Source: Escherichia coli (GTDB taxonomy: Bacteria; Pseudomonadota; Gammaproteobacteria; Enterobacterales; Enterobacteriaceae). From it: DNA of 64,000 bases. Where the stretch lies: the NCBI RefSeq assembly GCF_045037415.1, contig NZ_CP173438.1. One strand, given 5' to 3'. Each line of letters begins with the position of its first letter. Within the stretch, counting starts at the first letter, position 1. Positions 29,829 through 30,674 of this stretch are shown here, in pieces. The translations under genes and the position numbers were made by a program. The notes beneath the pieces were generated by a model, which had not been told where the DNA came from, did no database searches, and saw only the letters and a program-made list of their open reading frames with translations.

Positions 29829-30180
29829 CCGCAAAGCCAGACGCATTGCCGACCCAGGGCTGCAGCCGGAACGCACATCACTGGCGTGGTTTCGTACCAT
29901 GCTGGGCTACGGCGCGTTGATGGCGTTGGCTATCAAACACAACTGGCACCAGGCGGGCATGTTATTCTGGATTTCGATTGGCATCCTCGCCATTGTGGCG
30001 CTGATCCTCTGGCACTACACCCGTAATCGCAATTTAATGGATGTCACGAATAGCGATTTTTCCCAATTTCACGTAGTCCGTGACAAATTTTTGATCTCCC
30101 TCGCGGTGTTATCTCTCGCAATACTGTTTGCTGTAACGCATATACATCAACTTATCGTATTTATTGAGAGAGTCGCATGA
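29818..30180 (+). CDS. yidG: DUF202-family inner membrane protein
   Basis: 120-aa ORF, paralog-like to yidH (ERTSLAWFRT motif). Confidence 0.85.
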   Translation: MPDSRKARRIADPGLQPERTSLAWFRTMLGYGALMALAIKHNWHQAGMLFWISIGILAIVALILWHYTRNRNLMDVTNSDFSQFHVVRDKFLISLAVLSLAILFAVTHIHQLIVFIERVA

Positions 30181-30674
30181 CAGGAAGTCAGGTCATTGAT
30201 GCTGAAGAGGACAGGCATAAACTGGTTGTAGAGTATAAGGATGCTCTGCAACCTGCCGATTTTTATCACAATTTCAAACAGCTGGGCATCCGCTCAGTAC
30301 AGCTTATTCCCCATCTTGAATTTGATGACCGGGGCGATCTGACGGCCGCTTCGGTGACAGCAGAGCTGTGGGGGAAATTTTTAATTGCCCTGTTCGAGTG
30401 TTGGGTGCGGGCAGATATCAGTCGTATTTCGATTGAACTTTTTGACACCACCTTACAAAAATGGTGTGGCAGCGAAAAGTCGCAACCGCGCCGTGACTGC
30501 CAGGCGTGCGACTGGCATCGCCTGTGCCCGCACGCTCGGGAAGATAAACCAGACAACGTGCTTTGTGCGGGCTATCAGGCGTTTTATTCTTACTCCGCGC
30601 CGCATATGCGGGTGATGCGTGATCTGATAAAGCAGCATCGTTCTCCCATGGAGCTGATGACGATGCTGCGGTGA
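30177..30674 (+). CDS. yidF: YidF, SPASM-like Cys-rich fragment resembling the C-terminus of anaerobic sulfatase maturases
   Basis: 165-aa ORF with C-x2-C-x5-C (CQACDWHRLC) but no radical-SAM CxxxCxxC core; sits beside the sulfatase yidJ. Confidence 0.75.
   Translation: MTGSQVIDAEEDRHKLVVEYKDALQPADFYHNFKQLGIRSVQLIPHLEFDDRGDLTAASVTAELWGKFLIALFECWVRADISRISIELFDTTLQKWCGSEKSQPRRDCQACDWHRLCPHAREDKPDNVLCAGYQAFYSYSAPHMRVMRDLIKQHRSPMELMTMLR

Follow-up and report, generated by a model that had tools for sequence, protein, structure and literature searches.

Anaerobic sulfatase-maturating enzymes (anSMEs), among them AslB, AtsB and anSMEcpe of Clostridium perfringens, carry a radical S-adenosylmethionine (SAM) core, marked by the motif CX3CX2C, and a SPASM domain whose seven-cysteine motif serves two auxiliary [4Fe-4S] clusters. 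In anSMEcpe the first of these clusters (Aux I) is held by C255, C261, C276 and C330, and the second (Aux II) by C317, C320, C326 and C348; Twitch, a variant of SPASM, is without the CX2CX5CX3C segment and keeps one cluster, the Aux I half (PMC5715301). Here we consider yidF, a gene of 165 codons in a stretch of 64,000 nucleotides of Escherichia coli (contig NZ_CP173438.1 of assembly GCF_045037415.1; hereafter the window). A first-pass annotation of the window, made from the sequence alone, had read YidF as a stand-alone, SPASM-type, cysteine-rich fragment of a sulfatase maturase, and had suggested that it was a truncated or split enzyme.

Compared with these systems YidF is both familiar and reduced. 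It shares with the anSMEs its ancestry, its genomic slot, the Aux II ligand set and an AslB-type C-terminal helix, but is without ~200 of ~370 residues: CX3CX2C, the SAM-binding motif, strands 1-4 of the barrel, the SPASM hairpin and the Aux I ligands. From SPASM (PF13186/TIGR04085) it bears the tail end of the seven-cysteine motif, CX2CX5C plus a downstream cysteine. Like Twitch, YidF would bind one auxiliary cluster at most; however, Twitch keeps the Aux I half on a radical-SAM core, whereas YidF is the mirror image, with Aux II ligands and no core. The E. coli paralogues AslB and YdeM belong to the same enzyme family, and the three are each paired with a sulfatase gene (aslA-aslB, ydeN-ydeM and yidJ...yidF). 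AslB and YdeM are full length; YidF alone is a stump, and alone is separated from its sulfatase by two DUF202 genes.

On balance we favor the view that YidF descends from an AslB-type anSME which internal deletions have left without catalytic ability, and that it probably binds a metal or an Fe-S cluster and works with YidG and YidH. Its evolutionary anatomy, a maturase that has suffered a double in-frame deletion, is the part of which we are highly confident. The parts of the gene are as follows (positions are those of the window).

30177..30674, plus strand: yidF coding sequence, 165 codons and TGA; internally deleted maturase descendant
30177..30203, plus strand: retained N-terminus, MTGSQVIDA, against MTGCQVMAK of full-length enzymes
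30198..30204, plus strand: junction of deletion 1, from the protein alignment and the DNA alignment with its 426-nt gap
30222..30467, plus strand: remnant of the C-terminal part of the radical-SAM barrel, residues 16-97 (TIGR03942 160-245; anSMEcpe 176-246)
30468..30482, plus strand: junction of deletion 2, from protein and DNA alignments and the Pfam SPASM extent in a full-length orthologue
30498..30527, plus strand: C108-x2-C111-x5-C117, equivalent to anSMEcpe C317, C320 and C326 (Aux II ligands)
30564..30566, plus strand: C130, the distal cysteine, equivalent to anSMEcpe C348, the fourth Aux II ligand
30591..30671, plus strand: C-terminal tail, residues 139-165, YSAPHMRVMRDLIKQHRSPMELMTMLR, the most constrained part in long and short forms

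Descent from sulfatase maturases

YidF shares common descent with the anSMEs. Its best family matches are PRK13745 and TIGR03942, the NCBIfam equivalog for anaerobic sulfatase maturases; the latter is matched in two stretches (E = 6.9e-22), with YidF 17-101 aligned to model positions 160-245, at a score of 78 bits that lies below the curated cut-off of 349.45 bits and hence below equivalog level. Among solved structures the sole significant sequence match (HMMER) is to anSMEcpe (PDB 4k36, E = 9.3e-5): YidF 28-95 aligns with anSMEcpe 176-246, and YidF 78-152 with anSMEcpe 286-370. The full-length enzyme encoded at the same locus in Citrobacter braakii is matched by BLASTP at E = 4e-40. An AlphaFold2 model based on 56 homologues predicts a compact fold (predicted local distance difference test (pLDDT) 81.5; predicted template-modelling score 0.79), with pLDDT of 85-95 across residues 16-97. 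When the model was searched against the PDB with Foldseek, eight anSMEcpe chains were returned (E ~2e-6, query template-modelling score 0.62-0.66), with nothing else below E = 0.1.

The AslB/AtsB-type ancestry proposed in the first-pass annotation is thus borne out; the notion of a stand-alone SPASM domain is not, and we reject it as a description. A Pfam scan of YidF gave no match of any kind at E≤1, and hence none to Radical_SAM (PF04055) or SPASM (PF13186), and the SPASM model TIGR04085 does not report the protein in an NCBIfam scan at E≤10. Half of YidF (residues 16-97) was once radical-SAM barrel, namely its C-terminal part, and the SPASM body is the second of the segments that were deleted. 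The similarity is therefore to sulfatase maturases, where it is significant, and not to SPASM-only models.

The full-length enzyme at the same locus

The first-pass annotation had also raised the prospect of a full-length maturase at this locus in other Enterobacteria, and such genes exist. A scan of one genome per species, queried by conserved tail peptides, yielded 63 loci across Enterobacteriaceae. At ~28 of the 63 an intact gene for a protein of 367-376 amino acids (aa), with CX3CX2C in the form CNLxCRYC, stands directly after yidH-yidG. Carriers include Citrobacter werkmanii, C. braakii, C. sedlakii, C. amalonaticus, Kosakonia, Trabulsiella and Pseudocitrobacter, together with Kluyvera, Atlantibacter, Yokenella and Leclercia sp. 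29361. Three of the full-length proteins clear the 349-bit cut-off of TIGR03942, with scores of 473-484 bits. In one full-length orthologue (L024) Pfam places Radical_SAM (PF04055) at residues 12-173 and SPASM at 254-312, and the TIGR04085 match in the full-length orthologue covers 252-330.

Further contigs were reached through YidG: in Enterobacter and C. rodentium they carry the full-length gene, in Salmonella enterica a short one of 176 aa. A word-indexed protein search found relatives of 162-178 aa in Escherichia, Citrobacter, Superficieibacter, Leclercia and Silvania, as well as two longer fragments with an insert of ~55 aa bearing extra cysteines. The contig from which one of these longer fragments came (L001) reads yidL-yidK-yidJ-yidH-yidG and then the maturase, which reads MTGCHVMAKPASSRCNLRCRYCFY and has two N bases as its sole interruption.

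Both forms of the gene occur under one species name. Of Citrobacter youngae CCUG 30791 (L012) and ATCC 29220 (L054), one has a 176-aa short form and no yidJKL and the other a 370-aa maturase with yidLKJ; the difference implies either recombinational allele replacement or misassigned species names.

Two in-frame deletions

Aligned with the C. braakii enzyme, YidF is explained by two internal losses. The first removed ~142 codons (residues ~10-151; a 426-nt gap by protein and DNA alignments) and with them CX3CX2C, the GGE SAM-binding motif and barrel strands 1-4. The second removed ~59 codons (residues ~242-300), nearly the same segment as that defined by Pfam as SPASM in the full-length orthologue, and took the SPASM body with the equivalents of C255, C261 and C276. 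What is kept is the equivalent of residues ~152-241, the C-terminal helices and the Aux II cysteine loop. The pattern is general: short forms retain the original start and the first 7-10 codons, jump to ~152, and then jump from ~242/246 to ~297/300. The idea of a truncated maturase, if meant as an N-terminal truncation, consequently fails: the gene still begins at its original start codon, still overlaps yidG and still has its first ~7-9 codons (MTGSQV against MTGCQV).

Deletion 1 measures 426 nt in E. coli as in Salmonella and C. portucalensis, and E. coli has its boundaries in common with both Salmonella and the Citrobacter freundii group; these shared boundaries suggest one old event in the Escherichia/Salmonella/C. 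freundii-group clade. Other boundaries are found in Klebsiella/Raoultella (with an extra 10-aa deletion), in Leclercia/Silvania and in Superficieibacter. The gaps in L. adecarboxylata are 441 and 162 nt; all are multiples of three. Short forms are closer to the full-length forms of their own lineage than to the short forms of other genera: the Leclercia short form is 82% identical to the Leclercia full-length protein, and E. coli YidF reaches at best ~56% identity with a full-length protein. This resemblance argues for several independent reductions of the maturase.

Intermediate stages are also present. These include a 192-aa protein in C. amalonaticus ku-bf3 (CX3CX2C still there), a 220-aa protein in an MGYG isolate and a 249-aa protein in Pluralibacter, so that the locus offers a size series of 370, 350, 310, 249, 220, 192 and 165 aa. 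Smaller deletions within the SPASM segment were seen in Kosakonia oryziphila and in isolate RIT691. A profile search of 1.84 billion representatives returned intermediates of 310-315 aa in which the N-terminal domain is degenerate and the SPASM body missing, and similar relatives of high-GC composition without Aux I and CX3CX2C.

Two further sets of relatives were noted. The anSME relatives P0174, P0214, P0158 and P0150 (apparently unrelated taxa, high-GC or other) have no SPASM body between the C261 and C317 equivalents, and some are also without CX3CX2C, which suggests that the reductive route has been taken outside Enterobacteriaceae as well. In Kosakonia and relatives (L033, L035, L040, L047 and L052) several 'full-length' copies show the beginnings of decay in lineages without yidJ: the signs are substitutions of Aux I ligands (C276Y in L047, C261F in L052), a broken CX3CX2C (L040) and in-frame SPASM deletions of 14-23 aa (L035, L040). 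To judge from such changes, these copies look like stages towards a YidF-like stump.

The retained cysteines

YidF has six cysteines among its 165 residues (75, 97, 108, 111, 117 and 130). The single C-x2-C-x5-C begins at C108, and a motif of this kind has an estimated probability of <1% of arising by chance at the cysteine frequency of the protein (6/165); C130 is the distal cysteine. The motif is inherited: HMMER pairs C108, C111, C117 and C130 with C317, C320, C326 and C348 of anSMEcpe. YidF thus holds exactly the four Aux II ligand equivalents, whereas the Aux I set is gone in its entirety: three members went with the SPASM body, and the fourth, the C330 equivalent (last cysteine of CX2CX5CX3C), was removed by a further deletion of 4 codons. 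The seven-cysteine SPASM motif for two auxiliary clusters is accordingly not found in YidF. The cysteine pattern that the first-pass annotation had likened to an auxiliary-cluster region is therefore just that, and a search of the entire protein for CxxxCxxC (CX3CX2C) confirmed that the radical-SAM core motif is absent.

The same selectivity is evident across the scan. The C130 position is invariant in all 63 aligned homologues. Equivalents of C317, C320 and C348, together with at least four loop cysteines, are kept in 35 of the 36 short or intermediate copies; by contrast, equivalents of C255, C261 and C276 are found in 0 of the 36 short forms, and that of C330 is missing from Escherichia and several others.

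All elements for reductive SAM cleavage and for Aux I-assisted oxidation are missing, and YidF cannot, for this reason, be a radical-SAM maturase: SAM cleavage or formylglycine formation by the known radical-SAM mechanism is predicted to be impossible, whether for YidF alone or as one 'half' of an enzyme. The latter idea, that of a split maturase in which YidF, as the half with the auxiliary cluster, joins a radical-SAM half from another gene to mature YidJ, draws on the location of the gene in a sulfatase cluster and on its auxiliary-cluster motif. We consider it extremely improbable. The ATG of yidF overlaps the stop codon of yidG as ATGA (30177-30180; a 4-nt overlap), so that yidG abuts the gene; the missing 142 N-terminal residues are not encoded elsewhere in the window (tblastn with C. 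braakii residues 1-157 as query returned noise, best E = 0.29); Aux I, the cluster beside the active site, was deleted along with the SPASM hairpin; and the short form is kept at Citrobacter and Salmonella loci that have no sulfatase.

Selection on the short form

If YidF is catalytically dead then it might be a non-functional pseudogene remnant on its way to loss, with an open reading frame (ORF) that survives by chance or because the deletion is recent. In favor of this stand the loss of the catalytic core and of the Aux I site, a divergence far quicker than that of yidH, yidG and emrD, and the occasional frameshifted or altered allele (E. albertii NBRC 107761, L020; 145-aa variants in some E. 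coli assemblies); the visible decay of the full-length copies in Kosakonia also fits. The ratio of nonsynonymous to synonymous divergence (dN/dS, or omega; pairwise Nei-Gojobori counts with bootstrap) is about twice that of the full-length genes, for which pairs gave 0.06-0.15.

However, the values themselves are low. Fifteen short-versus-short pairs gave omega of 0.11-0.34, with bootstrap upper bounds ≤0.55 and pair dS of 0.2-1.4: for example, 0.12 for the window against Escherichia sp. E1V33, 0.11 for S. arizonae against S. diarizonae and 0.17 for K. indica against K. oxytoca. ORFs are intact at 34 of the 36 short or intermediate loci, in many genera, and one of the two broken copies lies in an assembly in which emrD is fragmented too; all deletions are multiples of three; and yidF is a core gene, found in 5420 of 5426 complete E. 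coli genomes. These observations, with the kept cysteines, show that the short forms are under purifying selection, roughly twofold weaker than that on the full-length enzyme, and are not neutral pseudogenes. We therefore give the pseudogene explanation little weight.

Constraint is unevenly distributed along the protein. In Escherichia regional dN/dS is 0.15 for the barrel remnant, 0.20 for the cysteine region and 0.07 for the tail, and tail values span 0.07-0.09 across the regional estimates. (One regional group, 'Leclercia/Silvania', was set aside owing to a frame inconsistency of L055 in the codon mapping; individual pairs were used instead.) Synonymous codons in the tail vary freely among the 63 homologues, which places the constraint on the protein rather than on the DNA. 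The tail contains a perfect 12-bp palindrome, CCGCATATGCGG, at 30600-30611, within the codons for P-H-M-R; synonymous codons vary freely at its positions also, which argues against a DNA or RNA element as the cause of tail conservation.

Association with yidH and yidG

The genes on the 5′ side of yidF belong to the sulfatase cluster.

25182..26048, minus strand: yidL, AraC-type regulator of the cluster
26215..27930, plus strand: yidK, sodium:solute symporter of the ancestral sulfatase cluster
27927..29421, plus strand: yidJ, Cys-type sulfatase (CTPAR motif), split by a 1-bp insertion
29481..29828, plus strand: yidH, DUF202 membrane protein, 11-nt overlap with yidG; heads the yidH-yidG-maturase trio
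29818..30180, plus strand: yidG, DUF202 membrane protein, directly 5′ of yidF or of the full-length maturase

The first-pass annotation had placed yidF in the same cluster as yidJ, and so it is, although yidJ is frameshifted. An extra C near 28258 (GGCAC|CTGG, against GGCA|CTGG in K-12) divides the gene into ORFs of 120 and 466 aa, and strain SK1144, to which yidH-yidG-yidF of the window is 100% identical, is likewise annotated with two sulfatase-like coding sequences at yidJ. YidJ, the presumed client of any maturase, is thus probably inactive in the window strain, while yidF is intact.

In contrast, yidH and yidG stand immediately upstream in 63 of the 63 scanned loci, with or without yidJ, and stop and start codons overlap throughout the yidH-yidG-yidF trio. 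Loci of the C. freundii type and of Salmonella read yidE-yidH-yidG-yidF, with no yidJKL and no sulfatase; Kosakonia has full-length maturases without yidJ. It is yidH-yidG, and not the sulfatase, that are the constant partners of yidF: loss or breakage of yidJ leaves the trio together, and linkage to yidH-yidG is hence tighter than linkage to yidJ. To our knowledge no function has been described for DUF202 pairs that accompany a radical-SAM enzyme of the anSME type, and NCBIfam has no model for yidH or yidG. Across genera the two DUF202 genes are far better conserved than yidF (identities of 83-98% for yidH and 62-100% for yidG).

These contexts bear on a further explanation, in which YidF is a non-catalytic helper of sulfatase maturation: a scaffold or chaperone for YidJ, or part of a system that makes formylglycine in Cys-type sulfatases. 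Descent from a maturase and the proximity of a Cys-type sulfatase (CTPAR) would both fit, and an older K-12 annotation reportedly gave the protein as 'putative Cys-type oxidative YidJ-maturating enzyme'. However, what is left of the fold matches no known oxidative chemistry. Moreover, the short form is kept without yidJ (Citrobacter, Salmonella) and alongside a frameshifted yidJ (the window strain and SK1144). How E. coli modifies Cys-type sulfatases is reported to be elusive (PMC6189696, citing Benjdia et al. 2007), a further point in favor of such a helper; even so, we think this role unlikely.

A role unconnected with either partner, for example in regulation or D-serine tolerance, has been hinted at by other evidence. 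In Citrobacter and Salmonella the D-serine genes dsdA, dsdX and dsdC come immediately after yidF or the full-length maturase (L002 8544-12386, by equivalog-level matches; L069 4972-8363 and L071 5526-8203, inferred from Pfam domains). Overexpression of YidF is said to raise the D-serine resistance of E. coli, according to a secondary source (PMC12363166), and an old annotation lists the protein as a predicted transcriptional regulator (PMC2848244). However, the dsd adjacency is missing in E. coli, where emrD is the neighbor; the dsd genes also adjoin a full-length maturase (C. rodentium); and no DNA-binding domain was detected in YidF by Pfam, NCBIfam or Foldseek. The adjacency and the resistance may be coincidence, and recruitment to an unrelated role appears to us doubtful.

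A possible role for YidF

We return to the reading of YidF as a dead maturase that has kept one cofactor site and two partners. The ancestral cluster would have comprised yidL and yidK-yidJ-(yidI)-yidH-yidG-maturase, with the anSME at its end. A first in-frame deletion removed the radical-SAM core and spared the start codon, the overlap with yidG and ~9 codons; a second removed the SPASM body. The surviving module, made up of the Aux II holder and the C-terminal helices that pack on Aux II, may still bind a [4Fe-4S] cluster or a metal through C108, C111, C117 and C130. Aux II is the surface-proximal, electron-exit cluster of the anSMEs, and it is with low-to-moderate confidence that we assign cluster or metal binding to the four-cysteine site. 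A comparable level of confidence attaches to the proposal that YidF works with YidH and YidG: the stump would be a small accessory of these co-translated membrane proteins rather than of the sulfatase, the reason being the persistence of the trio where yidJ is absent or broken. The contact between YidF and YidH/YidG possibly preserves an interaction of the full-length enzyme.

In its general features such a protein resembles known pseudoenzymes, in which catalytic residues are lost and the fold and part of the cofactor site remain under purifying selection. It differs from them in that the loss came about by large in-frame deletions, recurrent and with differing boundaries, and not by point substitutions.

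Several observations weigh against this reading. The cysteine loop is the least confident part of the AlphaFold2 model (pLDDT 52-61), which is weak over residues 101-130. The short form of L. adecarboxylata NCTC13032 (L055), the exception among the 36 copies, has no CxxC, and eight C. freundii-type copies have Tyr at the C326 position, although these retain the C330-equivalent cysteine and therefore still have at least four. Between E. coli and Citrobacter the identity of YidF is ~50%, against 80-84% for YidG, 91-96% for YidH and 88-89% for EmrD. For some of the pairs behind the omega values dS is near saturation; the scan needed a conserved tail peptide, and wholly decayed copies would have escaped it. 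Finally, Erwinia rhapontici (L072 3664-5781) has yidH-yidG and neither yidF nor a maturase.

A bolder variant can be framed, although we rate it as no better than an outside chance. YidF and its counterparts might be free-standing Fe-S modules of an 'Aux II-only' type not described before: the end of a SPASM enzyme at which electrons leave, carved out repeatedly by in-frame deletions and endowed with a function of its own, whether in the cytoplasm as redox partner to YidH/YidG or within Cys-type sulfatase maturation. Should the stump prove to be an Fe-S partner of the DUF202 pair, or a component of Cys-type maturation, then its importance would be the greater.

A search of the literature collection used here returned no paper that analyzes the nature of YidF; the matches were gene lists and one typographical error for YdiF. 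Its relationship to radical-SAM sulfatase maturases was already implied by automatic annotation: YidF is a 'radical SAM protein' in SK1144 and an 'uncharacterized protein YidF' in the RefSeq record of K-12 MG1655. What appears to be new is that YidF arose by a double in-frame deletion, that an intact ancestor exists at the same locus and that the reduction has recurred, along with the exact retention of the Aux II ligands, the purifying selection and the tighter linkage to yidH-yidG than to yidJ. The label 'radical SAM protein' is misleading, and the missing radical-SAM elements correct it; YidF can largely be taken off the list of plausible radical-SAM sulfatase maturases. A conserved stump with the ligands of one cluster and a firm link to YidH/YidG turns three uncharacterized genes into a testable unit. 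The size series, for its part, amounts to a natural whittling of a SPASM enzyme and could reveal which sub-modules of the fold are autonomous.

Other features of the region

In E. rhapontici, the sole context seen in which the trio is broken, a 175-aa ORF and the DDE transposase of an insertion sequence come after yidH-yidG, on the other strand, and phage-like genes occur in the region. In K-12 and C. rodentium yidI, which encodes a 149-aa inner-membrane protein, lies on the opposite strand between yidJ and yidH; it is absent from the window (29421-29481), where ~60 bp separate the two genes, and BLASTN with the yidI region of K-12 returned nothing from the window. A simple scan between yidF and the convergent emrD gave no convincing intrinsic terminator; a preprint includes a 'yidF' terminator among the terminators that it mutagenized. 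Beyond emrD, the emrD-ivbL intergenic region (31864-32264) is missing ~650 bp relative to K-12, including the tisB toxin and istR small RNA genes. Only the ends (3-118 and 768-936) of the 936-bp K-12 spacer match the window, and ysdE is kept according to the SK1144 annotation.

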